Shown: positions 2,073-62,446 of the stretch, one piece after another | Layout: every line of letters begins with the position of its first letter | How positions within the stretch are numbered: position 1 is the stretch's first letter | The notes under the pieces: generated by a model | The model's input: the letters and a program-made list of their open reading frames with translations, nothing else | What the model was told of the DNA's origin: nothing | Database searches by the model: none | Position numbers and translations under genes: made by a program | Source: Acidimicrobiales bacterium | GTDB taxonomy: Bacteria > Actinomycetota > Acidimicrobiia > Acidimicrobiales > SZUA-35 | Direction: 5' to 3' | Assembly: GCA_020629155.1 (NCBI GenBank) | Contig: JAHDDW010000006.1 | Location: forward strand, 48,403 to 112,402 | Length of the DNA stretch: 64,000 nucleotides

Positions 2073-2112
2073 AGATGGCCTTAGGGGCATCTGCTGGGCG
2101 TTCTCTAGCAGG
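2073..2112 (+). repeat. compact copy (K) of the recurrent intergenic element
   Basis: AGATGGCC-ttag-GGGCATCT forms a hairpin (7 of 8 pairs). It is followed by GCTGGGCGTTCTCTAGCAGG, which resembles GCTTGGGCCGTTCCACGGAGG of copy B. Confidence 0.35.
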
Positions 2113-2372
2113 TCGTCTAATGTATTTCGACGCTTCGAAGATCGGCCTGTTTTAGACGCTATACCATCAGTTCTGCGGCAGCGTACATGGCGTCATATTT
2201 ATGGGCAACGCTCTCCTCTATGTCGCTACTGTTGAGACTGTGTTTGGCGCCCAGGGCGACCTGATACCGCAGTTCGAGTTGAAGAACCCAGCCGAACGAG
2301 GCGGAGTCATGGGAACTACGATTGAAGTAGCGCTGGCCAGCCCGATTAGGCCTCTGACCAGGGCTTATAGCG

Positions 2373-2445
2373 TGCGCCCCCTGGGACTTGAACCCAGAAC
2401 CTGCGGATTAAGAGTCCGATGCTCTGCCAATTGAGCTAGAGGCGC
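2373..2445 (-). tRNA. tRNA-Lys (anticodon CTT)
   Basis: The reverse strand reads GCGCCTC-TA-GCTC-AATTGGCA-GAGC-A-TCGGA-CTCTTAA-TCCGC-AGGTT-CTGGG-TTCAAGT-CCCAG-GGGGCGC-A. This is a 73-nt cloverleaf with U33 and A37. CCA is not encoded. Confidence 0.9.
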
Positions 2446-2464
2446 TTGTCTTTGTATTTTTGAG

Positions 2465-2540
2465 GGTGACCGAGGGGATTTGAACCCCCGACATCCAGGA
2501 TCACAACCTGGCGCTCTAACCGGGCTGAGCTACGGCCACC
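2465..2540 (-). tRNA. tRNA-His (anticodon GTG) with encoded G-1
   Basis: The reverse strand reads G-GTGGCCG-TA-GCTC-AGCCCGGTTA-GAGC-G-CCAGG-TTGTGAT-CCTGG-ATGTC-GGGGG-TTCAAAT-CCCCT-CGGTCAC-C. The extra 5' G pairs with C73, a tRNA-His hallmark. Confidence 0.9.
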
Positions 2541-2671: not shown

Positions 2672-3664
2672 GTGGTGATAGTGTTACAAACCTATTACCG
2701 TATAGATGTGGAGAAAAAGTATGGATCATCTTGGAAGAACACTGTCTCGTCTTCTATCAAAACTGTACGGCATAATCAGAACCTAAAACCGCAACTCGCT
2801 GTTGCTCTTGTTCTCGTCCTTGTAGTCGGCACTGTGGTGTATTTCCAAGGTGGGCGTTCTGCTCAAGATCAGATTAGTCTTGCAGACGAATCTGTATCCG
2901 TTCTAGGTGAAGACGTCGTGAGTACCCAGGCAGCAACCTCAACCACGCTAGCTATAAACCCTCTATCCCAGCCAACAGGGACGCTTGTGGAAAGCACAAC
3001 AACCACAGGTGAAGAATCAGCTTCTACTGAAATCTCAAAACAAAAACCTGTCGGTTACCCGCCTTCTCCCAAACGAACACAATGCCAGAGCTATTATGGT
3101 GCCTCAGTCGCTAATGTGGCTTTTGCTCAAATGACAGAGAACGAAGAGACAACAACAACCGAAGCTCAAACAACCACAACAGAAGCTGAAACAACTACAA
3201 CGGCAAAACCCACTACAACACAGGCACCTACTACATCAGAGCCAACAACAACTAAAGCGCCTACGACTAAAGCACCTACAACGACGGCGAGGCCGACCAC
3301 GACACAAGCTCCAGCGACAACCGCAGCTCCAACAACAGCACAACCTGCGACAACTAACCCACACCCAAGCGGCTGGGTAAACGCAGGTCATAATGTGTAT
3401 GTTCCCAAAGTTTTAATCGTTATACGATGTTGTGAATCTACAGGCAATTACACTGCCGCAAATGCTCATTCAACAGCACGAGGCGCCTATCAATTCCTAA
3501 CAGGAAGTTGGGCTTACTATGGCCACAAAGATCGCTATGGTGCCAGCCAAGCGCATCTAGCATCTCCAGCGCAACAAGATGAAGCAGCGCTGAAAACTTG
3601 GGAACGAGACGGCACTCGTCCATGGAACGCTAGCAAAGCTTGCTGGGGACAAAACCCTGTTTGA
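2672..3664 (+). CDS. membrane-anchored secreted protein with a C-terminal transglycosylase-like (Rpf/SLT-like) domain
   Basis: A TM helix (LAVALVLVLVVGTVVYF) is followed by a long T/P/A-rich linker. The C-terminal segment CCESTGNYTAANAHSTARGAYQFLTGSWAYYG...WNASKACW resembles the CESGGN...YQF..STW transglycosylase-like signature. The exact start is uncertain (GTG 2672 or a downstream codon). Confidence 0.65.
   Translation: MVIVLQTYYRIDVEKKYGSSWKNTVSSSIKTVRHNQNLKPQLAVALVLVLVVGTVVYFQGGRSAQDQISLADESVSVLGEDVVSTQAATSTTLAINPLSQPTGTLVESTTTTGEESASTEISKQKPVGYPPSPKRTQCQSYYGASVANVAFAQMTENEETTTTEAQTTTTEAETTTTAKPTTTQAPTTSEPTTTKAPTTKAPTTTARPTTTQAPATTAAPTTAQPATTNPHPSGWVNAGHNVYVPKVLIVIRCCESTGNYTAANAHSTARGAYQFLTGSWAYYGHKDRYGASQAHLASPAQQDEAALKTWERDGTRPWNASKACWGQNPV
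3147..3358 (+). repeat. coding low-complexity repeat (TTTT-E-A / PTTT-K/Q-A units)
   Basis: The translation reads ETTTTEAQTTTTEAETTTTAKPTTTQAPTTSEPTTTKAPTTKAPTTTARPTTTQAPATTAAPTTAQPATT. The DNA is an imperfect ACA/ACC-rich tandem stretch inside CDS 2672-3664. Confidence 0.8.
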
Positions 3665-5196: not shown

Positions 5197-5263
5197 AAGG
5201 GATGTCTATTAATTATACATCCCTTCAGTATTCCCGCTCCGCTCAGGGTTGGCACGCAGCTTT
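5197..5263 (+). repeat. copy A of the recurrent intergenic element (hairpin plus CCGCTCCGCT box)
   Basis: AAGGGATGT-ctattaattat-ACATCCCTT is a perfect 9-bp stem (5197-5225). It is followed by CAGTATTCCCGCTCCGCTCAGGGTTGGCACGCAGC. The copy lies between the murA start and the DUF1501 stop, antisense to both. Confidence 0.7.
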
Positions 5264-5365
5264 GGGTCTGCATCTATGAAATCATTCAGTAGACAAACAT
5301 ATTGCATGCGTTAAATTGGAATTCACTACCTCAAATCTTTTACAGTAGAAAAGAGGTATTCCCGT

Positions 5366-8385: not shown

Positions 8386-8994
8386 GTGGCTAGAGCATTA
8401 ACATTTATTGATGATGATGACACATTTGAAGTGGCGGTCGAAAAAGTTGACCGAAAAAAAGTCTATGGCTGGGTTGACCGTAAACCTGTTGACCGTGAAG
8501 GTAACAGTTGTTTCCTTGGGTCTGTTTCGGCAGATGGTTTACATATCTTCAGCCGCGAATCATTTGAAATGGGCCATGTTGATTCGCAAGGGCGTTGGGT
8601 CGAAAAAAGCGAATTGCAAGCAGTTGACAGCGACGGCGAAGCGTTAGAAAAAGAAGAGTCGTCTTTTAAACAGCAGCTAAAACTAGAAGAAACAGTCTCG
8701 ATTGATTTTTATCTTGACCATATTGTCAAGTCCGTGTACGAAATAGCAGAGCCAGGGGAGTTGCTTGCAAAAGTTCAAGCAAGCGAAGCGATCTTTACGT
8801 TTCCTTTTAACTACACGGCCTCATATGAGCCGTCGCCTGCGTTTCTTATAGAAAATGACGGCACGCTATTTATGGTTGTCGGTCAACCCGCTGGTTTTGA
8901 ATTTATAAGCAAACCAGAAGTAGAGAATGTAGTTCTGTTCGACGAAGAGGACGAAGAAAGCGCTGCAGATGATCTTGACTTCAGCATGATGTAG
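8386..8994 (+). CDS. acidic hypothetical protein with an acidic C-terminal tail
   Basis: 202 aa with no motif I recognise. It is strongly D/E-rich and ends in VVLFDEEDEESAADDLDFSMM. Its stop codon abuts repeat copy B. Confidence 0.55.
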   Translation: MARALTFIDDDDTFEVAVEKVDRKKVYGWVDRKPVDREGNSCFLGSVSADGLHIFSRESFEMGHVDSQGRWVEKSELQAVDSDGEALEKEESSFKQQLKLEETVSIDFYLDHIVKSVYEIAEPGELLAKVQASEAIFTFPFNYTASYEPSPAFLIENDGTLFMVVGQPAGFEFISKPEVENVVLFDEEDEESAADDLDFSMM

Positions 8995-9061
8995 GGGCAT
9001 CTCTGCGAGATTGTAGATGCCCCTGGTTTATCCGCTCCGCTTGGGCCGTTCCACGGAGGTT
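8994..9061 (+). repeat. copy B of the recurrent intergenic element (hairpin plus box plus GGAGG module)
   Basis: GGGGCATCT-ctgcgagattgt-AGATGCCCC is a perfect 9-bp stem (8994-9023). It is followed by TTTATCCGCTCCGCTTGGGCCGTTCCACGGAGGTT (9027-9061). The element starts at the last base of the TAG stop of 8386-8994. Confidence 0.75.
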
Positions 9062-9125
9062 GGGCTTGCGCCTGTTAAGGCAAGTTCCTAAAAATCGATT
9101 AGTGAAATTTCTATGAAAGAAAAGT

Positions 9126-11603: not shown

Positions 11604-11614
11604 ACTTGGATTTT

Positions 11615-12193
11615 ATGTCGCCCGCTAGAGTCCTTATTGCAGAAGACGAAGCCTTACTCCGTCTTGATTTGAAAGAATCGCTAATTGAGCTTGGCTACGA
11701 GGTGGTAGGCGAAGCCGAAGATGGTCTTGAAGCTGTCATGATGGCCCGAGAACTTGTGCCTGACGTGGTGATTCTCGATATTCGTATGCCGAATATGGAC
11801 GGTCTGCAAGCGACGCAAGAAATAATTGATCAACAACTTTCAGCGGTGGTAATTCTTTCTGCGTTCTCACAAAAAGATCTTATTGACCAGGCGTGTGAAG
11901 CTGGGGCTTTGGCGTATTTAGTGAAGCCGTATCAGCAGAAAGAAATTGTGCCAGCGTTAGAGCTTGCAATGAGCCGCTTTCGTGAGTTTGTGCTTTTGTC
12001 AGAAAAATCTGAGTCACTTAGCGAGCAGTTAGAGTCACGTAAGCTGGTTGATCGAGCGAAAGGCCTGCTGATGGACAAATATTCTTTGACCGAGCATCAG
12101 GCATTTCGGTTTATCCAGACAACTGCGATGGCTGGTCGTGAGTCTATGGCTGCCATCTCCCAGCAAGTGATCGACAAGAAACTAAAACCATAA
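11615..12193 (+). CDS. pdtaR: response regulator with an ANTAR RNA-binding output domain (PdtaR-like)
   Basis: The REC domain reads RVLIAEDEALLRLDL...PDVVILDIRMPNMDG. The ANTAR domain reads ESRKLVDRAKGLLMDKYSLTEHQAFRFIQTTAMAGRESM. ATG 11615 is preferred over TTG 11606. Confidence 0.85.
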   Translation: MSPARVLIAEDEALLRLDLKESLIELGYEVVGEAEDGLEAVMMARELVPDVVILDIRMPNMDGLQATQEIIDQQLSAVVILSAFSQKDLIDQACEAGALAYLVKPYQQKEIVPALELAMSRFREFVLLSEKSESLSEQLESRKLVDRAKGLLMDKYSLTEHQAFRFIQTTAMAGRESMAAISQQVIDKKLKP

Positions 12194-12241
12194 AACAGTA
12201 GAGACGCATGATTAATAGACATCGCCGCTAGGTTTGAATCT

Positions 12242-16474: not shown

Positions 16475-16507
16475 GAAGTAACTCGAACTACTTTAAAGCA
16501 ATGTAGC

Positions 16508-16548
16508 AAAGAGGCTGGCGTCTAAAGACGCCAGCCTCTTTGGGTTTT
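16508..16548 (+). terminator. Rho-independent terminator after rpsA
   Basis: AAAGAGGCTGGCGTC-taaa-GACGCCAGCCTCTTT is a perfect 15-bp stem. It is followed by GGGTTTT. Confidence 0.85.
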
Positions 16549-19550: not shown

Positions 19551-20846
19551 ATGAGCGAAGAATATGACTTCTCTAATCTTAACTTCGAAAGTTTCTCGGT
19601 AGATGGTTCGACATCAGCAGATGAAGAAACAGCGTTTCGCCTAGAAAACGGAGTTTCAATAGCGGTTGTCGATGCAGACCAAGCAGTTTGTGACTACTTG
19701 TCGTCGATGTTTGAAGGCTCAGTTGATTCAGCTTTTTCTTTATCAGCGATGGAGAACCAGCTTGGGCTTTCTTCTAAAGTTGTGATCATGGGGCCATCGT
19801 GTGCCACAGATTCAGAACTAGCTATAGCGGAACGTTGGGCAAAGCAGCATCCACATGTGGCGACTATTTTGATAACCTCTGAGCTGACAACGCAGCTGCT
19901 GCGTAAAGCGCTTCGTGTCGGGGTCAAAGATGTCTTAGCTGCTCCTGTTGATCAAAGTCAACTTTTTGAGACGATCAACCGTGTTGCTGAAGGTCTTCCT
20001 GATGGACAAGAACTAGCCGAAACTGCGCTGAGTGCACCTGTTCTTGATGAATCAGTTTCTGGTCGTGTTATCAACGTTTTTTCAACTAAAGGCGGTTCTG
20101 GTAAGTCTGTCACAGCAACGAACCTAGGTGTTGCGTTGGCGAAACGTTCGTCGTTGCCGGTAGTGATCATTGACGGGCATCTGCAATTTGGAGATGTTGC
20201 TGTCATGCTAAAATTGCAACCTAAACATAGTGTCGTTGACGCTATCGCACAAATAGACAGCCTTGACGGTCAAATGATCCAACAGTTCATGACAGTTCAT
20301 GAGCCAAGCGGTTTGATGGTGCTTTCAGCACCGCTTGACCCCATGTTTGCTGACCAAGTGCAAGGTGAACAGATGGTCAGGCTCATCGAAGTTGCAAAAT
20401 CATTCGCAGGGCATGTGATTGTTGATCTCCCTGGTTTGTTTAATGAGGTTGTACTTAGCGCTATTGAAGCCAGCGATGATTTGCTTATCGTCGCTGAGCT
20501 CGATATCCCAAACATCAAAAATGTCAAAGTTGGTTTGCAAACTTTAGAAATGCTTAACATTCCTAAAGAACAGATCCATATTGTGATCAACCGAGCTGAT
20601 TCAAAAGTGAAGCTTGATGTTACAGAAGTGGAAAAAGCGCTTGGAGTGAAAGCAATAGCGCATATTCCTTCTGATGTTGTGGTGCCAATATCTGTTAATC
20701 GCAGCACGCCCGTTGTGATATCTGCACCAAAATCTGGTGTGGCAAGAGCCTTTGAAGAGTTAGCGTTGCGCTTTTCTGAACAAGACGCAGTGCTTGCTCC
20801 TAGCAGCAGCGGTGGCAGCAGTCTTAAAAAGTTTTTGGTTAGGTGA
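19551..20846 (+). CDS. tadZ: TadZ/CpaE-like ParA/MinD-family ATPase with an N-terminal receiver-like domain
   Basis: The deviant Walker A is VINVFSTKGGSGKSVTATNLGVALAKR. The N-terminal receiver-like fold ends in ...GVKDVLAAPVDQSQL. Confidence 0.82.
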   Translation: MSEEYDFSNLNFESFSVDGSTSADEETAFRLENGVSIAVVDADQAVCDYLSSMFEGSVDSAFSLSAMENQLGLSSKVVIMGPSCATDSELAIAERWAKQHPHVATILITSELTTQLLRKALRVGVKDVLAAPVDQSQLFETINRVAEGLPDGQELAETALSAPVLDESVSGRVINVFSTKGGSGKSVTATNLGVALAKRSSLPVVIIDGHLQFGDVAVMLKLQPKHSVVDAIAQIDSLDGQMIQQFMTVHEPSGLMVLSAPLDPMFADQVQGEQMVRLIEVAKSFAGHVIVDLPGLFNEVVLSAIEASDDLLIVAELDIPNIKNVKVGLQTLEMLNIPKEQIHIVINRADSKVKLDVTEVEKALGVKAIAHIPSDVVVPISVNRSTPVVISAPKSGVARAFEELALRFSEQDAVLAPSSSGGSSLKKFLVR

Positions 20847-20860
20847 TGACTACCTCGCCC

Positions 20861-20899
20861 CAGTGTTCCGCTGCGATCGGATCGTTTCCATGTAGGTTT
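20861..20899 (+). repeat. copy E of the recurrent intergenic element
   Basis: CAGTGTTCCGCTGCGATCGGATCGTTTCCATGTAGGTTT aligns with copy C (GTATTTCCGCTCCGCTCGGGCCATTCCATGGAGGTTT). It sits in the 124-nt gap between tadZ and tadA. Confidence 0.55.
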
Positions 20900-20970
20900 C
20901 AGCGGATCGCTGTGTATGCAATTTGACAGAAAACAAAAATTTACCAGTTTGATGGATAGAAGGAGCCCCC

Positions 20971-24330: not shown

Positions 24331-24370
24331 CTGTAAAGGATAGGGTAGGCGCTACTTTATATTCTCATCT

Positions 24371-24401
24371 AGTGAACACTCTGAGCGCTGCGGAAATACT
24401 G
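24371..24401 (-). repeat. copy G of the recurrent intergenic element (box only, inverted)
   Basis: The reverse complement reads CAGTATTTCCGCAGCGCTCAGAGTGTTCACT. Compare copy A, CAGTATTCCCGCTCCGCTCAGGGTTGGCAC. Confidence 0.5.
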
Positions 24402-24457
24402 AGAGATGTGTGCTGAAAAGATATCCTGAGTAGCGATGTGCTGCTAGAATCGCCTGT

Positions 24458-26404
24458 GTGAATATTTCTGTTACTCTTCCTGATGGTTCTGCGAGAGAAT
24501 TAGAAGAAGGTTCAACCTTTTCTGATCTTGCCGCTTCGATAGGCTCGCGCCTTGCTAAAGATGCTGTTATCGGTGTCGCTGATGGGCAAGAGGTTGATTT
24601 GACAACACCAGTGCAAGCCGATCAAAATGTTGCTGTTGTGGTCGCCGATAGCGATCGTGGTTTGCATACAATTCGACATTCAACGGCGCATGTTCTGGCG
24701 CAAGCAGTTCTAGAGCTTTGGCCTGATGCAACCTTTGCTATCGGTCCGCCGATCGAAAACGGTTTTTATTATGATTTTGATCTTGGTGGCGATGCATTCA
24801 ACGATGACGATCTTGAAAAGATTGACGCGAAGATGCGTGAAATTATTGCTGCTGATCAGCCATTTATTCGCAGTGAAATGTCTGCAGCTGATGCTAAAGA
24901 AGTTATGGCGCAGCATAAATATAAGCGAGAGATTATCGATCGTGTGTCGGCTCACGAAGACGACAGCGAATTAGCTGGTGAAGCCGATGGCGATGTCATT
25001 AGCTTCTATCGCAATAGCGATCAATTTATTGATATGTGCATGGGTCCGCATGTGCCGTCGACTGCTCGTCTCGGTCATTTCAAGCTTATGAAAGTTGCTG
25101 GTGCATATTGGCGAGGTAGCGAAAAAAATCCGATGCTGCAACGTATTTATGGCACAGCATGGGCAACAAGAAAGCAGCTGAAGCAGCATCTTGTTCGTCT
25201 TGAGGAAGCCGCAAAACGCGATCACCGTAAGTTAGCAAATGAGCTTGATTTGCTGTCTTTCCCGCCTGAACTTGGCGGTGGTTTAGCTGTTTGGCATCCT
25301 AAGGGCGCCATCATTCGAAAGTTGATGGAAGATTATTCTCGTAAGCGTCACGAAGAGGGCGGCTATGAGTTTACGTATACGCCGCATTTGGCAAACGCTA
25401 AACTGTTTGAAACATCTGGTCACCTCGATTTTTATGAAGACGGCATGTATCCGCCGATGGAGATGGATAACGGCACTTACTATCCTAAACCAATGAACTG
25501 CCCAATGCATGTGCTTGTCTATAAGGCGCAGCAACGTTCCTATCGCGAGTTGCCGCTGCGTTTGTTTGAGTTGGGTACGGTGTATCGCTATGAGCGTGCA
25601 GGCACATTGCATGGGCTTATGCGCATCCGAGGGTTCACACAAGATGATTCCCACATTTTTGTGACGCAAGAAGAGTTGGCCAAAGAGTTGGCTAGTTTGT
25701 TAGCGTTCGTTCTTTCGGTCTTGCGGGCGTTTGGGTTTGAAGAGTTTCAAGCGAAACTTTCAACAAAACCTGAAGGTAAGGCTGTCGGTGGCGATGAAAT
25801 TTGGGATCATGCCACGCAGGCGTTGCGTGCAGCACTTGAAGAAGCTCAAATAGACTATGTTGTTGACGAGGGTGGCGGCGCTTTTTATGGCCCTAAGATC
25901 GATGTTGATGTGCGCGATGCGATTGGTCGTTCATGGCAACTTTCAACAATTCAGGCCGATTTTAATTTGCCTGAACGGTTCGATTTGGAATATGTCGCTG
26001 CTGATGGCACTCGTAAACAGCCAGTAATGGTGCATCGTGCGTTGTTCGGTTCTGTTGAGCGGTTCTTCGGTGTTCTGACTGAGCATTTCGCTGGGAACTT
26101 CCCGTTGTGGCTTGCTCCTGTGCAGGTTGAGGTGCTTCCAGTGGCCGAAGCTCACAACGAATATGCACAGAAAGTAGAACAACTCTTGACAGATAAAGGC
26201 TTGCGTGTGCAAACAACGTTGGCGACCATGCCGTTAGGTAAACGGATCCGCAATGCTAAGAAACAGAAACTGCCGTATGTGCTTGTTGTCGGTGATGATG
26301 ATGTGGCGCAGCAAAGCGTGGGTGTTAACCCTCGTGGCGGCGAAGTGGAACGTGGTGTGCCGCTAGATACGTTTGCTCTTCAGCTAACTGAAGAGTTAGC
26401 TTAG
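24458..26404 (+). CDS. thrS: threonine--tRNA ligase
   Basis: 648 aa. It has a TGS-like N-terminus, the editing-domain motif HSTAHVLAQAV, and class II core motifs YRELPLRLFELGTVYRYE and GFTQDDSHIF. Confidence 0.95.
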   Translation: MNISVTLPDGSARELEEGSTFSDLAASIGSRLAKDAVIGVADGQEVDLTTPVQADQNVAVVVADSDRGLHTIRHSTAHVLAQAVLELWPDATFAIGPPIENGFYYDFDLGGDAFNDDDLEKIDAKMREIIAADQPFIRSEMSAADAKEVMAQHKYKREIIDRVSAHEDDSELAGEADGDVISFYRNSDQFIDMCMGPHVPSTARLGHFKLMKVAGAYWRGSEKNPMLQRIYGTAWATRKQLKQHLVRLEEAAKRDHRKLANELDLLSFPPELGGGLAVWHPKGAIIRKLMEDYSRKRHEEGGYEFTYTPHLANAKLFETSGHLDFYEDGMYPPMEMDNGTYYPKPMNCPMHVLVYKAQQRSYRELPLRLFELGTVYRYERAGTLHGLMRIRGFTQDDSHIFVTQEELAKELASLLAFVLSVLRAFGFEEFQAKLSTKPEGKAVGGDEIWDHATQALRAALEEAQIDYVVDEGGGAFYGPKIDVDVRDAIGRSWQLSTIQADFNLPERFDLEYVAADGTRKQPVMVHRALFGSVERFFGVLTEHFAGNFPLWLAPVQVEVLPVAEAHNEYAQKVEQLLTDKGLRVQTTLATMPLGKRIRNAKKQKLPYVLVVGDDDVAQQSVGVNPRGGEVERGVPLDTFALQLTEELA

Positions 26405-26468
26405 GCGATGTCTTCTATTGTGCATCCACTGTATTTTCGCTTCGCTCAGGGCGTTAGCACGCAGTCTT
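26402..26468 (+). repeat. copy D of the recurrent intergenic element (decayed hairpin plus box)
   Basis: TAGGCGATGTCTTCTATTGTGCATCCACTGTATTTTCGCTTCGCTCAGGGCGTTAGCACGCAGTCTT starts at the thrS TAG stop. It shares the exact 14-mer GCGTTAGCACGCAG with copy F. Confidence 0.6.
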
Positions 26469-26485
26469 AACAGTTAAGGATTTTC

Positions 26486-33529: not shown

Positions 33530-33554
33530 CAGTATTCTTGCTGGTTCGCTAAGC
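33530..33554 (+). repeat. weak, decayed copy (I) of the recurrent element box
   Basis: CAGTATTCTTGCTGGTTCGCTAAGC compares with CAGTATTCCCGCTCCGCTCAGGG of copy A. It lies 40 nt after the stop of 32444-33490. Confidence 0.3.
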
Positions 33555-36318: not shown

Positions 36319-37239
36319 ATGAAAGAAAAATCAAATTCACATGAGAGTTCTATCCACAACCCTCATGATTCAGTAGTCAAAAAGTTCTTTACTGCGCGAA
36401 CTATGAAAGAATTTCTAGAAGAATATTTCCCTTACGGATTATGTAAGGAAATCAATCTTGATTCTTTGACTTTATGCGACACTGAGTTCATCAGTTCTGA
36501 ACTTGTACGTTCTTCTGCGGATCTTCTATTTAAGGCCGATTGTAGCCATGAAAGATGGACCTATGTTTACGTCTTGTTTGAACACAAAAGTCAACCCGAA
36601 CGTGAAGTCGCATTGCAGTTGTTGCGATACATTGTTAACATCTGGAGCAAAGGTAAACCTGAACTAGTGCTGCCTATTGTATTTTATCATGGCAAAGAGA
36701 GCTGGAATATAGAGACAAGCTTTCAGGCATCAGTGTTTCCTGGAATGCCAGAGATTCTTCGTTCATGCACACCAGAATTTGACTATTGGCTTTTTGATGT
36801 CCAGTCTTTGGGCGATTTCGATGTTGAAGTAGTTTCTGAATTGCAGGCACTACTCCTGGTTCTAAAAGCGTTAAGTAGCCAGAACCCTTACCTTTATCTG
36901 GAAAGACACAGCAATATGGTGTTAAAATGGATCATAGGGAATTCAATAAACAAAGAAAAACTTGAATCTCTGATGAGATACCTAGCAGATCAAACGAATG
37001 AGTTGGATGATTATAAGCAATTTGAGACTCAACTACTCGAACAAGGAGCAAAAATGCCAAGCGTATTAGAACAACTTACACAACAAGGCCTTGAGCAGGG
37101 TCTTGAGCAGGGTCTTGAACAAGGGCTAGAGCAAGGGGTCGAACAAGTAGCAAAAAAGATGCTTGGCAAAGGCTATAGCATAGCCGAAATCGAGGAAGTC
37201 ACAGGCCTTAAACAAACAAGAATTACAGAGCTTAAGTAA
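36319..37239 (+). CDS. Rpn-family recombination-promoting nuclease / putative transposase (YhgA-like PD-(D/E)xK)
   Basis: HDSVVKKFF...ADLLFKADCSHERWTYVYVLFEHKSQPEREVALQLLRYIVNIW matches the Rpn/YhgA-like core. The C-terminus carries (GLEQ)n repeats. The locus looks A/T-richer than its neighbours by eye. Confidence 0.75.
   Translation: MKEKSNSHESSIHNPHDSVVKKFFTARTMKEFLEEYFPYGLCKEINLDSLTLCDTEFISSELVRSSADLLFKADCSHERWTYVYVLFEHKSQPEREVALQLLRYIVNIWSKGKPELVLPIVFYHGKESWNIETSFQASVFPGMPEILRSCTPEFDYWLFDVQSLGDFDVEVVSELQALLLVLKALSSQNPYLYLERHSNMVLKWIIGNSINKEKLESLMRYLADQTNELDDYKQFETQLLEQGAKMPSVLEQLTQQGLEQGLEQGLEQGLEQGVEQVAKKMLGKGYSIAEIEEVTGLKQTRITELK
37087..37146 (+). repeat. five tandem 12-bp units encoding (GLEQ)x4-GVEQ
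   Basis: The units are ggccttgagcag, ggtcttgagcag, ggtcttgaacaa, gggctagagcaa and ggggtcgaacaa, all inside the Rpn-family CDS. Confidence 0.9.
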
Positions 37240-43343: not shown

Positions 43344-43425
43344 GCAACTGATTTTTTCTTGTAGGAGCGTTTAGATAGTTGCATATAAAAACCTGCGTGG
43401 CAATGCATGAAGTAAGGCATACCTG

Positions 43426-46401: not shown

Positions 46402-46791
46402 ATGGTGACAAATAATGTTCGATTCGGAAATGTATATGAGACGCTTGGCAAGGACTGGTTCGTAGCAGTCATTGACCGTTTCTATGACAAAGTTGAAACT
46501 GACGATCTATTGCGTCGGCTCTATCCTCAAGATCTTACTGAATCGCGTGATCATATGGTGAAGTTTCTTATCCAATTCTGGGGCGGCCCAACTACATATA
46601 GCGATGAACGTGGTCATCCTCGTTTGCGTATGCGCCACATGCCTTTTGAAATTGGCCAAGCTGAGCGAGATGCTTGGATGAAACATATGCGAGAAGCTGT
46701 ACAAGAAGGAAACCTTCAAGCCGAGCTAGAACAACAGATGCTTGACTATTTCGAGCGCGCTGCCACTCATACGATCAACACAGCATCGTAA
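46402..46791 (+). CDS. glbO: group II truncated haemoglobin
   Basis: FYDKVETDDLLRRLYPQDLTESRDHMVKFLIQFWGGPTTYSDERGHPRLRMRHMPFEIGQAERDAWMKHM closely follows the trHbO sequence pattern. Confidence 0.88.
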   Translation: MVTNNVRFGNVYETLGKDWFVAVIDRFYDKVETDDLLRRLYPQDLTESRDHMVKFLIQFWGGPTTYSDERGHPRLRMRHMPFEIGQAERDAWMKHMREAVQEGNLQAELEQQMLDYFERAATHTINTAS

Positions 46792-46832
46792 GGGCACCTC
46801 TAGAAATTGTATTGTTTGGCCGTTCGAAAAAG
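46789..46832 (+). repeat. copy J of the recurrent element (5' arm and 3' module retained, box deleted)
   Basis: TAAGGGCACCTCTAGAAATTGTATTGTTTGGCCGTTCGAAAAAGG compares with copy B TAGGGGCATCTCTGCGAGATTGTAGATG...TTGGGCCGTTCCACGGAGG. It begins at the glbO TAA stop. Confidence 0.5.
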
Positions 46833-49619: not shown

Positions 49620-49644
49620 AGTCGTTATGCATGTCATAGGTGGC
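49620..49644 (+). repeat. direct repeat DR1 (AGTCGTTATGCATGTCATAGGTGGC)
   Basis: 24 of 25 nt are identical to 50455-50479. It lies 3 nt after the ATPase stop codon. Confidence 0.85.
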
Positions 49645-50454: not shown

Positions 50455-50479
50455 AGTCGTTATGAATGTCATAGGTGGC
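50455..50479 (+). repeat. direct repeat DR2 (AGTCGTTATGAATGTCATAGGTGGC)
   Basis: This is the second copy of DR1. Its last 5 nt include the pcrA GTG start at 50475. Confidence 0.85.
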
Positions 50480-53609: not shown

Positions 53610-54206
53610 ATGAAAAAAAATTCGTTAAAAATGTTAGGTTTTGCTTTTTCTGCAGCAGTAGTGTTTGCTTCTTGCGGCTCAGATGGCGAAGGCAGTTCAA
53701 CAACTAATGACCAAGTTGCGACAACAGCTGATGAGCCATCTTCAGCTGAAGTAACAACAACAATAGACGATGTCGCAGAGGCATCAACAACTGCTGTCAG
53801 CGGTGCTACAAGTGTTGCAGGAGCTGCCGAGACAACTGTTAATGCCGATGAAAGTGCTGCATTGGTGGAATTTTCTAACACAGGTTCTTTCGGCGATATC
53901 GCCGTTAACAGTGATGGCATGACGCTTTATGGCTTTGTGCCAGATCTTGATGCTAAAAAAGTTACATGTGAGGGAGGCTGTGCTACAGCTTGGCCTCCTG
54001 TAACTGTGCCTTCTGAAGAACTCCCTGAAGGATTAAGTGCGGAACTTTTCTCTGTCACCGAAGGTCCGAATGGTTTCCAACTACAGATAGCAGATGTGCC
54101 GCTTTATCTTTATCAAAGTGATAGTGCTCCTGGCGACACTAAAGGTCAAGGCGTCGGCAGCAAATGGTATGTTGTTGGTCCTGATGGCAGCCTTATCAAG
54201 TCATAA
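53610..54206 (+). CDS. lipoprotein with COG4315-type secreted repeats (Lipoprotein_15-like)
   Basis: The lipobox is AAVVFASCGSD. The two repeat halves are MTLYGFVPD...CEGGCATAWPPV and VPLYLYQSDSAPGDTKGQGVGSKWYVVGPDG. Confidence 0.7.
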   Translation: MKKNSLKMLGFAFSAAVVFASCGSDGEGSSTTNDQVATTADEPSSAEVTTTIDDVAEASTTAVSGATSVAGAAETTVNADESAALVEFSNTGSFGDIAVNSDGMTLYGFVPDLDAKKVTCEGGCATAWPPVTVPSEELPEGLSAELFSVTEGPNGFQLQIADVPLYLYQSDSAPGDTKGQGVGSKWYVVGPDGSLIKS

Positions 54207-54207
54207 A

Positions 54208-54251
54208 TGCCATGCGTATTTCCGCTCCGCTCGGGCCATTCCATGGAGGTT
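54208..54251 (+). repeat. copy C of the recurrent intergenic element (box plus GGAGG module)
   Basis: TGCCATGCGTATTTCCGCTCCGCTCGGGCCATTCCATGGAGGTT is near-identical to copy B across about 35 nt. It starts 2 nt after the stop of 53610-54206. Confidence 0.7.
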
Positions 54252-54372
54252 TTCACGTGTGCTTGTGCAAGCAAAAAGTAAACAAAAATTATTTTAAGAG
54301 ATAGACTGTAGTATTCAAAGAGCTGCGTCTCGATCTGAGACGCAGCTCTTTGACTTACTTAAGGAGAATGTT

Positions 54373-55576: not shown

Positions 55577-55899
55577 TAGGTAAGGCTATCTGTCTCTTGT
55601 GATGATTTGAACATGTCGAAGCCGACTGGCGAGCTCATGGCTCAGAGCGTAAAGATCTAGTTAACCTTAACCGTAAAGCTGCCTTCTGAACGTTCATGTA
55701 AGGTTTCTCAACAGCAGGGCCAAGCAATAAGCTGTACAGCATGCAGGTTTTAGCGCTTGCATGGGCAAACAGCGAAATATGTTGTAAGTTAGTGCAATGC
55801 TAGAAAGTATTGGTCATCACAAATTCCTGATTTTCTGGTACGACCTATCACGTAGAAGTCGTCTGCTCATTGGAGCACTGACTCGGATAAGGATTTTTC

Positions 55900-60462: not shown

Positions 60463-60557
60463 ATGTCTGAGCCTACCAGCCGCTTGTAACTGTCGTCTTT
60501 AACTTGAGGCTATCTCTGTTTATTGCTTCTCCGCTGAATCGCTTTACCCAAAACCCG

Positions 60558-60628
60558 CTAAAAGCTGCGTGCTAACGCGTTAAGCGCAGCGGAAATAAAG
60601 TGGGCATCTACAATTATTAGAGATGCCC
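60558..60628 (-). repeat. copy F of the recurrent intergenic element (full copy, inverted orientation)
   Basis: The reverse strand reads GGGCATCT-ctaataattgt-AGATGCCC-a-CTTTATTTCCGCTGCGCTTAACGCGTTAGCACGCAGCTTTTAG. The hairpin is at 60602-60628 (8-bp perfect stem). Its arm contains the track ATG (60623) of the ABC exporter. Confidence 0.75.
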
Positions 60629-62446
60629 TTGCTTGAAGATCAAGATCCTAGTCTTAGCCTGTACGCTGACATGATGCAACAAGTTCCTAGAACCGCCAAA
60701 GAACTCTTTATCGAGGTCGGCAAGCCGTATCGGAAGAAGTTTTTTCTTTTCTTTTTATTAGGCGGTATTGGCTCATTTTTTTGGATGACAACGCCATATG
60801 TTGTAGCAAAAATAATTGATGCACTAACTGAGACTCCATCGATCACCAACATCGTTGTGTGGCTTCTGGTTTTATTCGTTTTTCTGCGATTCGCCGAAGA
60901 AACGTTGTGGCGTGCAGCTGAATATGTCGCGCGATCTTTTGTTCCCGAGCTTGTAGAAGATGTGAGAATGTCGCTCTTTCGGTCGACGTTGGCAAAGTCT
61001 CACTACTATTTTGTGAACAGTAGCAGCGGACAGCTGGGACATTGGATTAACCAGGCATCAGCAACAACCAAAAACTTCATCTCAACAGTTTTCTGGAACA
61101 TGTGGGGTATGGCATTTAAACTTGTCGTCGCAGCAGGTTTCCTTTTCACGGTTCATTGGGCGCTCGCGTTGCTATTTATTGTTTGGCTCATCCTCCTCTT
61201 CGTTTTTACTGTTAAACGAGGTCGCACATTTAGCGAATTAATAGCTGACTGGGGAGAAGAAAAAAGCAAAGGCGCTGGCCAGGTAGTTGATGCTATGAGT
61301 AATCATCTTGCTGTTCGTTCATTTACAACGAAGAGCTATGAAGAAAAATTATTGGCTGCGCAACAGAGAAATATTGTGCGAAGTCGCAAAATTTCTTGGC
61401 GGCATAACTTGATCACAAACGCAGCGAAAGGGCAAAGCGCTAACGTCGCTGGCCTTTTAGGTCTTGTGTTCGCTGTCTGGTTATATGCCGAAGGGCAGAT
61501 TACGATCGGCGAACTTGTCTTGTTTATCGCCTATTTCGACGCAGCGTCAGTTGGTCTATGGAAACTGTCGTGGGCAATAAACGAGCTATATATGGACTAT
61601 GGGATGTTGAACAATGCATTGGAAGGCCTTCACGGCGCAGACGAGCGACAAGCATCTCTGCAAAATGCATCGAGTCAGTCAGAAGTAGCTAGCGATAGAA
61701 GTGTTACCGTAGTTCTTAACAACGTCGGCTTCGCATACCCAGATCAACCTGAAAGCAAAATTCTTTCCTCGTTCGATCTGAAGATAGAGCCAAAACAAAA
61801 AGTTGGTGTCGTCGGCGGTAGCGGCGCAGGTAAGTCGACGCTCGTCGCGTTACTCCTAGCGTTCTATGATGCGACTGAAGGAGAAATACTAGTAAACGGA
61901 CAAACGCTACAGGAACAAGACCCTTCATTCATGCGTAGCCTGGCATCGTACGTGCCACAAGAAACTAACTTGTTTAACCGAACGATCAAAGAAAATGTTT
62001 TGTATGCCAAACTTGATGCGACAAATGCGCAGATAACTAGGGCGTTAGAGCTTGCCGAAGCGAGCGATTTTGTTGCTGCTCTTCCTAAAGGTATCGACAC
62101 ATTAATAGGAGAGCGAGGCGTGAAACTTTCAGGCGGACAACGCCAAAGAATTGCTATAGCGAGGGCCATTCTACGTGATGCGCCATTGCTGATCTTGGAC
62201 GAGGCAACAAGTGCGTTAGATAGCGTTAGTGAACAAGCCATTCAAAAGGCGTTACACACATTGATGCAGGACAGAACGGCTGTGGTAGTTGCACATCGCC
62301 TTTCCACGCTAAAACATCTAGACAAAATTATTGTTATGGATCAAGGCCGTGTTGTTGAGTGCGGCAATCACAACGAGCTACTCGTGCTAGACGGTAACTA
62401 CGCCGATTTATGGAAGCGTCAAAAAGATGGTTTCCTCGCTGCGTAA
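60623..62446 (+). CDS. ABC exporter, fused permease/ATPase (MsbA/MdlB-like)
   Basis: The N-terminal half is a six-TM domain. Walker A is GGSGAGKST, the signature is LSGGQRQRIAIARA, and Walker B is LLILDEATSALD. The start is uncertain: ATG 60623 lies inside a repeat hairpin and ATG 60671 (MMQQVP...) is in frame. Confidence 0.9.
   Translation: MPLLEDQDPSLSLYADMMQQVPRTAKELFIEVGKPYRKKFFLFFLLGGIGSFFWMTTPYVVAKIIDALTETPSITNIVVWLLVLFVFLRFAEETLWRAAEYVARSFVPELVEDVRMSLFRSTLAKSHYYFVNSSSGQLGHWINQASATTKNFISTVFWNMWGMAFKLVVAAGFLFTVHWALALLFIVWLILLFVFTVKRGRTFSELIADWGEEKSKGAGQVVDAMSNHLAVRSFTTKSYEEKLLAAQQRNIVRSRKISWRHNLITNAAKGQSANVAGLLGLVFAVWLYAEGQITIGELVLFIAYFDAASVGLWKLSWAINELYMDYGMLNNALEGLHGADERQASLQNASSQSEVASDRSVTVVLNNVGFAYPDQPESKILSSFDLKIEPKQKVGVVGGSGAGKSTLVALLLAFYDATEGEILVNGQTLQEQDPSFMRSLASYVPQETNLFNRTIKENVLYAKLDATNAQITRALELAEASDFVAALPKGIDTLIGERGVKLSGGQRQRIAIARAILRDAPLLILDEATSALDSVSEQAIQKALHTLMQDRTAVVVAHRLSTLKHLDKIIVMDQGRVVECGNHNELLVLDGNYADLWKRQKDGFLAA

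Follow-up and report, generated by a model that had tools for sequence, protein, structure and literature searches.

A family of small dispersed intergenic repeats with a hairpin and a conserved box in a low-GC Acidimicrobiia-like actinobacterium

In this study we describe a family of short repeats scattered between the genes of a 64,000-nucleotide stretch of DNA from an Acidimicrobiales bacterium (assembly GCA_020629155.1, contig JAHDDW010000006.1, positions 48,403 to 112,402 of the forward strand), hereafter called the window. The unit consists of a hairpin, stem-loop 1 (SL1), followed by a box with the sequence CCGCTSCGCT and further conserved sequence. The repeat family is real, and it is probably lineage-specific and made up of small dispersed repeats, non-coding and non-autonomous, of the kind of repetitive extragenic palindromes (REPs), bacterial interspersed mosaic elements (BIMEs) and miniature inverted-repeat transposable elements (MITEs). 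It is new in sequence and in host lineage and ordinary in kind. Nine solid copies were found in the ~95 kb of sequence examined from this one genome (the window and other contigs): seven in the window (A to G), one (H) on the short-read contig L017 and one on contig L045. The density is about one element per 7-9 kb, and nine solid copies in ~95 kb extrapolate to hundreds per genome.

RESULTS

Detection of the repeat family

A profile of seven anchored copies gave exactly seven nhmmer matches at E<1e-8 (A to G), with the next match at E=3.5. To avoid circularity the profile was rebuilt without each copy in turn, and every omitted copy was recovered, with scores from 14.9 bits (E 1e-3, copy G) up to 37 bits (E 8e-11, copy F). 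Compared with these 14.9-37 bits, the top score in 40 dinucleotide-preserving shuffles of the 68.8-kb sequence was 10.4 bits, so the similarity exceeds that of shuffled sequence, a check close to one that a preliminary description of this DNA had proposed. A generic repeat finder independently picked the pairs B/C (79% identity over 48 nt), D/F (85% over 39 nt) and A/C. The sequences quoted in the preliminary description were located at the coordinates given there, and D and F do have GCGTTAGCACGCAG exactly in common; B and C, described as near-identical over ~35 nt, are similar at the lower identity and over the greater length just mentioned.

Weaker candidates were judged by a gap-tolerant comparison against a background of 3000 random genomic 51-mers. 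It yielded three probable decayed copies in the window: J (p ~0.0003), K (p ~0.0007) and a fragment at 12205-12226 (p ~0.0003), all p-values preceding correction for the number of spacers open to choice. J and K escape nhmmer because of internal deletions. Candidate I (33530-33554) was not told apart from background (p ~0.09), and two look-alikes of the 3' part of the unit, at 43385-43403 on the minus strand and 55737-55756 on the plus strand, behaved in the same way as background in this comparison. Hence, of the ten or more copies announced earlier, seven of the ten listed are solid (A to G), J and K are probable and I is not supported; with the fragment, which had been missed, the window holds seven solid and three probable copies, a total near the original count.

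Anatomy of the unit

The unit measures ~75 nt in its short form and 125-135 nt in its long form. Its parts follow one another in the order SL1, T-rich linker (yWGTATTT), box, CGTTnnCAYRSAG block, ~40 variable nt and, in long copies, a 3' block. SL1 has a stem of at most 9 bp and an AT-rich loop of 10-12 nt with the conserved sequence CTnnnAATTGT. The box is the best conserved part, with 10 alignment columns invariant across eight copies; its pentamers are directly repeated (CCGCT-CCGCT in A, B and C, TCGCT-TCGCT in D), and it is followed by yRGGsCGTTnnCAYRSAG.

Copies C, E, F and H carry ~70 nt more co-linear sequence. Between F and H the identity is 67% over 105 nt (E 1e-11), with agreement 3' of CACGCAG at 40 of 65 ungapped positions. 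The long forms terminate in the block AGAGAYAGMCT, which lies ~80 nt 3' of the box and has a constant offset in C, F and H. This 3' block is an imperfect inverted copy of the unit's 5' end. Judged by eye and in few copies, the number of agreeing positions between the 5' sequence AAGGGCATCTCT and the reverse-complemented 3' block is 9 of 12 for F and 6 of 12 for H, and 8 of 12 when the 3' block of C is set against the 5' end of F. Copy D and the L045 copy are short forms of ~75 nt ending in ...CAGyCTkAACAGT. Two subfamilies can be distinguished, B/C and A/D/F/H. The extent of 8994-9083 given in the preliminary description therefore covers one copy only, since C, E, F and H align over ~105-135 nt, and copy C starts at 54184, further 5' than the 54208 given there. 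The copies are as follows.

5197-5263, plus strand: copy A, left-out nhmmer E 6.1e-8; SL1 5197-5225 (AAGGGATGT/ACATCCCTT, -11.8 kcal/mol), box 5232-5243.
8994-9084, plus strand: copy B, core match 8994-9061, left-out nhmmer E 1.9e-6; SL1 8994-9023 (GGGGCATCT/AGATGCCCC, -16 kcal/mol), box 9030-9041, mini-hairpin (SL2-like) CCGT/ACGG 9046-9056, additional small hairpin 9064-9084.
20841-20965, plus strand: copy E, long form, core match 20841-20900, left-out nhmmer E 3e-5.
24364-24427, minus strand: copy G, left-out nhmmer E 1e-3 (14.9 bits); box 24384-24395.
26403-26474, plus strand: copy D, short form, core match 26403-26469, left-out nhmmer E 6.3e-9.
54184-54308, plus strand: copy C, long form, core match 54184-54254, left-out nhmmer E 1.8e-6; box 54220-54231, 3' block AAGAGATAGACTG 54296-54308.
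60503-60630, minus strand: copy F, most intact long form, core match 60560-60629, left-out nhmmer E 7.7e-11; SL1 60602-60630 (-13.1 kcal/mol), box 60583-60594, 3' block ACAGAGATAGCCTCAAG 60503-60519.
L017 12334-12400, minus strand: copy H, solid, on a short-read contig reaching 4.8 kb beyond the window end.
L045 12718-12775, minus strand: ninth solid copy, on a 46%-GC contig of the same samples.
46790-46826, plus strand: copy J, probably a B-type copy with a ~25-nt internal deletion (SL1 right arm and box).
2073-2118, plus strand: copy K, not significant in nhmmer, probably a compact or internally deleted copy (TTAGGGGCATCT...GGGCGTT...TCTAGCAG).
12205-12226, minus strand: fragment with SL1 left arm and loop only (GGCGATGTCTATTAATCATGCG).

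The copies have no open frame in common, and their concatenated six-frame translations gave nothing at E<=10 against a protein database. As had been noted before, no copy encodes a plausible protein: the frames of all copies are short or interrupted.

SL1 is supported by compensatory changes

SL1 is the sole structural part of the unit with covariation support, and it is well supported. In the alignment 88.7% of its cells are paired, compared with 33-47% in slid controls, and four of nine pairs show compensatory changes (G-C to A-U or U-A, and C-G to G-C twice). Covariation at this level was reached by 0/500 shuffles; a hairpin compensated in this way suggests that folding matters. Intact SL1 stems range from -11.8 to -16 kcal/mol, and the 10 nt after SL1 contain 2-6 T. 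The stem has weakened to -5.8 kcal/mol in C and -3.0 kcal/mol in D, and in E, G and J the hairpin is largely lost. The RNAalifold consensus energy is nearly nil (-0.57 kcal/mol), and none of the copies is matched by an Rfam 15 family, whether at the gathering threshold or at E<=5 to 10.

Three further structures were considered and rejected. The mini-hairpin SL2 (4 bp, SCGU/ACGS) reaches 90% pairing, and both sides have changed in two of its pairs; 73/500 shuffles were as good. A box helix GCTSCG/CGSAGC, to which B, F and E had pointed, is interrupted in A, D and H, with shuffles equally good. A longer second hairpin, formed by the box and a downstream (C/T)AGCGG, has pairing in E and F only.

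Position relative to genes

All nine solid copies lie in non-coding DNA, which makes up 11% of the sequence, and all except F lie downstream of the stop codon of an open reading frame (ORF). Both orientations relative to the neighbours are present, as stated earlier, whereas the seven sense copies said to lie 3' of a plus-strand gene come down to five (B, C, D, E and J), each co-oriented with two flanking plus-strand genes. K is uncertain. The ORF at 1593-2027 in the window is not a called gene. In these five the stop codon of the upstream ORF falls inside the first ~25 nt of the element. A TAG or TAA stands at the stem foot in B, D and J: the TAG at 8992-8994 overlaps the first stem base of B, the TAG at 26402-26404 overlaps the 5' end of D, which fills the 81-nt spacer between the ThrRS and HIT genes, and the TAA of a globin gene (46789-46791) overlaps the 5' end of J. 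Copy E, between cpaE-like and cpaF-like tad pilus genes, has SL1 mostly deleted; the TGA (20844-20846) lies 3 bases further in, where a remnant of the left arm persists, and its 3' block extends into the Shine-Dalgarno region of the following gene. In C the weakened left arm of SL1 is formed by the final codons of a lipoprotein gene, whose TAA (54204-54206) is in the loop. A crude gene map of 61 ORFs gives 31 TAA, 25 TAG and 5 TGA stops. Few TGA stops are unusual in actinobacteria, though this genome has just 46% G+C. Because TAG is a common stop in this genome, its presence at the element is not diagnostic; its position is.

Four copies (A, G, H and the one on L045) lie antisense between genes that run in one direction. 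Their 3' end points toward the stop codon of the upstream gene, which directly abuts the L045 copy and is within ~5 nt of H, 34 nt from G and ~100 nt from A. Both genes flanking A (DUF1501 and EPSP synthase) are on the minus strand, and G, with a decayed SL1, lies between a tadC-like gene and thrS. Copy F is located in a divergent promoter region, sense to a UvrD-like helicase gene, and the annotated ATG of an ABC transporter gene (60623) falls within its stem. The fragment at 12205-12226 sits in the 48-nt spacer that separates an ANTAR regulator gene from polA. The genes next to the copies do not share a function (EPSP synthase, DNA ligase, tad pilus, ThrRS, HIT, AhpC, helicase, malic enzyme).

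Source organism, relatives and database searches

The window has a G+C content of 46% and carries housekeeping genes (polA, thrS, ribosomal protein S1, the tad pilus operon, ATP-dependent DNA ligase and pdxS/T). The identity of its ThrRS to other proteins in a 5.8-billion-sequence database does not exceed 79%, and the named top matches are metagenome-assembled genomes labelled Actinomycetota, Acidimicrobiales or Acidimicrobiia. Together with the G+C content, these matches point to an uncultured, unusually low-GC Acidimicrobiia-like actinobacterium without a close sequenced relative. The window DNA recurs at 100% identity in short-read assemblies of runs SRR14415273-75.

No copy was found in three loci of relatives (ThrRS 76-78% identical, 55-65% G+C). 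Their ThrRS-HIT spacers are 3-30 nt long, compared with 81 nt in the window, and gene order downstream of thrS is largely conserved with locus L016. As the spacers of the relatives are short and the gene order is kept, copy D looks like an insertion into a conserved operon-like block, the relatives being distant. Pattern scans of one genome per GTDB species, of JGI metagenomes and of IMG/VR, sets that were scanned without the source genome, returned only chance hits in unrelated taxa, none of them confirmed by nhmmer. A blastn search of the long form against plasmids and phages gave no match. Searching the literature for the box sequence and for repeats of Acidimicrobiia turned up nothing relevant, and we know of no such small dispersed repeats catalogued for an Acidimicrobiia-like group.

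Contigs from two independent short-read assemblies both start within the box of copy C, at window position 54222, and the L045 contig ends within the SL1 loop of its copy. De Bruijn assemblers break where the same k-mer occurs elsewhere. The contig breaks are therefore indirect evidence of near-identical copies in the unseen part of the genome.

Other features of the window

Several further features were noted in passing.

2372-2539, minus strand: adjacent tRNA-Lys(CTT) and tRNA-His(GTG) genes. Two short-read contigs end at 2492 inside tRNA-His and L017 ends inside another tRNA gene, which points to further copies of these tRNA sequences in the community or the genome.
3145-3361: a Thr/Pro-rich linker of degenerate 18-nt periodic repeats with many ACA/ACC codons; it belongs to a secreted transglycosylase-like gene (Rpf-type, PF06737; 2672-3664).
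5209-5307, minus strand: 32-aa ORF called in a short-read assembly, antisense through copy A and with no homologues detected; probably a gene-calling artefact caused by the repeat.
11606-12193, plus strand: response regulator with an ANTAR RNA-binding output domain, directly upstream of polA; no ANTAR-type dual-hairpin target was seen in the window.
36319-37239, plus strand: Rpn/YhgA-like 'Transposase_31' (PF04754) gene, whose best database relative is only 37% identical (the search did not return the query itself); the 3' part of the gene has 12-nt tandem repeats (GTCTTGAGCAGG, 37088-37137). On another contig of the same samples there is a paralogue with 31% identity. Contig L045 was reached via a distant paralogue of this gene.
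49620-49644 and 50455-50479: a 25-nt sequence, GTCGTTATG(C/A)ATGTCATAGGTGGC, 96% identical between the sites, one upstream of a 242-aa hypothetical gene and the other directly upstream of, and overlapping, the annotated GTG with which a UvrD/PcrA-type helicase gene starts. An operator or promoter common to both, possibly DNA-damage related, is conceivable.
54317-54352: perfect 16-bp inverted repeat, AAAGAGCTGCGTCTC-GATCT-GAGACGCAGCTCTTTG, between copy C and a 1-Cys peroxiredoxin (AhpC/TSA) gene and ~20 nt upstream of the latter; it could be an operator or a bidirectional terminator.

DISCUSSION

The repeats described here occur in both orientations next to unrelated genes, fall into subfamilies and have long and short forms; there are deleted and fragmentary copies, the orthologous ThrRS-HIT spacer of relatives is empty of them, and the density is one per 7-9 kb. 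Taken together this is the signature of REP/BIME-MITE repeats, and a pattern of subfamilies, length forms, internal deletions (J, K, E) and fragments resembles birth and decay. On largely these grounds (orientation, unrelated flanking genes, decayed or deleted copies, the relatives' spacer, density) we agree with the preliminary description in preferring a REP/MITE-like element or a terminator- or 3'-UTR-associated RNA over a single operator, while the first two of these cannot be separated from each other with the present data.

If the family is indeed of the REP/BIME-MITE kind, it might have spread within the low-GC Acidimicrobiia-like lineage into DNA just downstream of ORFs, in either orientation, and most copies would now be decaying. 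SL1 may have been kept by compensatory changes as the target of an enzyme working on folded single-stranded DNA. For REPs and IS200/IS605-type elements it is an HUH enzyme that recognises a fold on single-stranded DNA, and by analogy we infer mobility, and mobilisation by a hairpin-recognising enzyme, for the present element. In the co-oriented copies the hairpin and T-rich tail at the stop codon might terminate transcription intrinsically, attenuate it, or protect the mRNA as a 3' hairpin; from their placement, a secondary role of sense copies in transcript-end formation is plausible.

Many properties are shared with the REPs and BIMEs of Proteobacteria (PMC3733652, PMC2817692): a short imperfect palindrome kept as a hairpin, a strictly extragenic location, abundance, occurrence in both orientations mostly just downstream of ORFs with the element end sometimes supplying a TAG stop, a composite build with conserved non-palindromic neighbours as in BIMEs, and a candidate role as terminator or mRNA stabiliser. 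REPs likewise lie predominantly downstream of ORFs and often supply TAG stops, but their palindromes carry a conserved unpaired GTAG or CGTC tetranucleotide at one foot (PMC3733652). No such tag is conserved here: the tetranucleotide 5' of the stem is GTAG in B alone, TTAG in D and E, CAAG in A and F, AAAG in H and TCAG in G, and CGTC does not occur. Inverted REP doublets (REPINs) were not seen among the copies, either. Because of these two differences the family cannot be classed as a RAYT-type REP. The unit also differs in its ~100-nt non-palindromic body and its actinobacterial host, and no RAYT gene was seen in the available ~95 kb (Pfam scan of ~50 window ORFs). The main text of the REP survey (PMC3733652) is without the word Actinobacteria.

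Likeness to MITEs such as Correia/NEMIS of Neisseria, ERIC/IRU of enterobacteria and RUP/BOX of Streptococcus pneumoniae (PMC3184786) lies in the intergenic, probably co-transcribed non-coding unit of 75-135 nt, in the subfamilies and short forms made by internal deletion, in ends that are imperfect inverted copies, in terminator or hairpin signals that could be carried along, and in the modular build of hairpin and box as in BOX elements. The family is thus small, non-coding and multi-copy with deletion derivatives (J, K and E). It is not firmly a MITE, because its terminal inverted repeats are weak and no consistent target-site duplication is detectable; in addition, no parent insertion sequence (IS) with the same ends was found in the window or in plasmid, phage, viral, genome and metagenome collections, and the copies are far more diverged than those of recently active MITEs.

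Two other systems deserve comparison. Intrinsic terminators share the G+C-rich stem (-12 to -16 kcal/mol) right after the stop codon and the T-rich stretch behind it; unlike them, the present unit has a conserved loop of 10-12 nt, an interrupted T tract and ~35-100 nt of conserved sequence 3' of the hairpin, and it also occurs antisense and in a divergent promoter region. Canonical terminators of different look are present in the genome, for example at 16507-16545, and a terminator scan omits SL1 because its rule admits loops of 3-8 nt only. Mycobacterial interspersed repetitive units (MIRUs), which Supply et al. (1997) are said to have described as tandem arrays always co-oriented with the operon, with small ORFs coupling translation, are likewise intercistronic units of 40-100 nt in operons of an actinobacterial host and overlap the upstream stop codon. 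In contrast to MIRUs, the copies here are single, hairpin-based and in both orientations (four of nine antisense), with no tandem arrays and no conserved ORF.

Several observations weigh against a mobile repeat of the REP/BIME-MITE kind. Neither a Y1/HUH enzyme (RAYT, PF01797-type) nor a classical IS was found among the ~50 window ORFs scanned with Pfam, and the sole transposase candidate, the Rpn-like PF04754 gene, is adjoined by no copy. The terminal inverted repeats match at only 6-9 of 12 positions, and inspection of the borders, which are uncertain by a few nt, revealed no consistent direct repeat. Recent transposition was not directly observed, the pairwise identity among copies being only 65-85%, and no empty-site allele was found, all short-read contigs being 100% identical to the window. 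That the box is far better conserved than the rest suggests selection on sequence, which fits a functional RNA or DNA site too. As an intrinsic terminator SL1 is atypical because of its loop of 10-12 nt and its imperfect T tract. Furthermore, only ~95 kb of one genome stand behind the description of the family.

The main rival explanation is a family of selected cis-acting RNA elements, a module for punctuation in intercistronic gaps or 3'-UTRs that was duplicated or taken up at many gene ends, rather than a selfish mobile repeat; it might be a terminator or attenuator, a processing site or a stabiliser, possibly protein-bound at the box. We hold this to be possible but rather unlikely. The covariation of SL1, a box that is nearly invariant while its flanks drift, the T-rich tract directly 3' of SL1, and sense copies that begin right at stop codons and fill intercistronic spacers (E in the tad operon, D between ThrRS and HIT) would all be expected of such a module, as would the high pairing of SL2 with its two doubly altered pairs. 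But SL2 did not rise above shuffles and the box helix is unsupported, the consensus energy is close to zero, SL1 has been lost in many copies (D, E, G, J) and Rfam offers no match even at E<=5. Four of the nine solid copies are antisense to the transcription unit, so that box and downstream blocks are read as the complement, and a dispersal mechanism would still be required. Another idea, which we consider unlikely, is that the unit is a portable structured module of gene ends, in which a compensated hairpin and an invariant single-stranded box are recognised by a dedicated protein of the lineage. It is kept alive by the strong conservation of the box and by the ORF stop codon inside the element; the protein could be an undescribed type of enzyme that mobilises hairpin-bearing repeats in Actinobacteria, or an RNA-binding factor that punctuates operons by way of the box (termination, processing, insulation). 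To our knowledge RAYT-type systems have not been described in Actinobacteria.

It seems improbable that the element serves as a site on DNA at which an abundant protein, nucleoid-associated or globally regulatory, reads the CGCT-N-CGCT box and/or an SCGT-N3-4-ACGS palindrome. The directly repeated pentamers of the box would suit such a site, which could function in either orientation, and one copy per 7-9 kb is similar to the site density of nucleoid-associated proteins. Homology over 75-135 nt, however, goes well beyond a protein site; the compensatory changes in SL1 point to base pairing and not to base-specific readout by a protein, the copies are at the 3' ends of genes and not at promoters, and the decayed and deleted copies resemble insertion remnants. 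Similarity by chance or composition, for instance among independent intrinsic terminators that look alike, has next to nothing left to recommend it. Hairpins after stop codons are common, and candidate I and the fragments at 43385 and 55737 are indeed indistinguishable from background; but the left-out copies reach E-values down to 8e-11 where shuffles stay at or below 10.4 bits, conservation extends to the loop sequences and to ~35 nt of non-palindromic sequence behind the hairpin, and every solid match is intergenic. For the seven core copies this explanation is already refuted.

Other known signals were rejected as well. Promoter readings by eye on both strands (sigma-70 -35/-10, sigma-54 TGGCAC-N5-TTGC, ECF GGAAC...GTT, SigF/B GTTT...GGGTA) found no consistent register across the copies, and a sigma-70-type consensus scan found no site inside A or B. 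An ANTAR target RNA was considered because of the ANTAR regulator gene at 11606-12193; there are no dual hexaloop hairpins, and no ANTAR-related family is among the Rfam matches listed at E<=5. Integron attC sites, IS200/IS605 ends and group II intron remnants were dismissed on inspection, as no conserved target, GTTRRRY core or intron boundary motifs were seen.

In conclusion, we characterized a family of small dispersed repeats that has practical consequences for work on this organism. The repeats break its short-read assemblies, with contigs ending inside copies, and their overlap with stop codons and start regions can lead gene callers astray, as at the 32-aa ORF in copy A and the ABC transporter start in copy F. 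The copies could also be used as strain markers. If they do act as a working terminator or stabiliser, or as the substrate of an unknown enzyme, they would provide a handle on gene-end architecture in streamlined actinobacteria.

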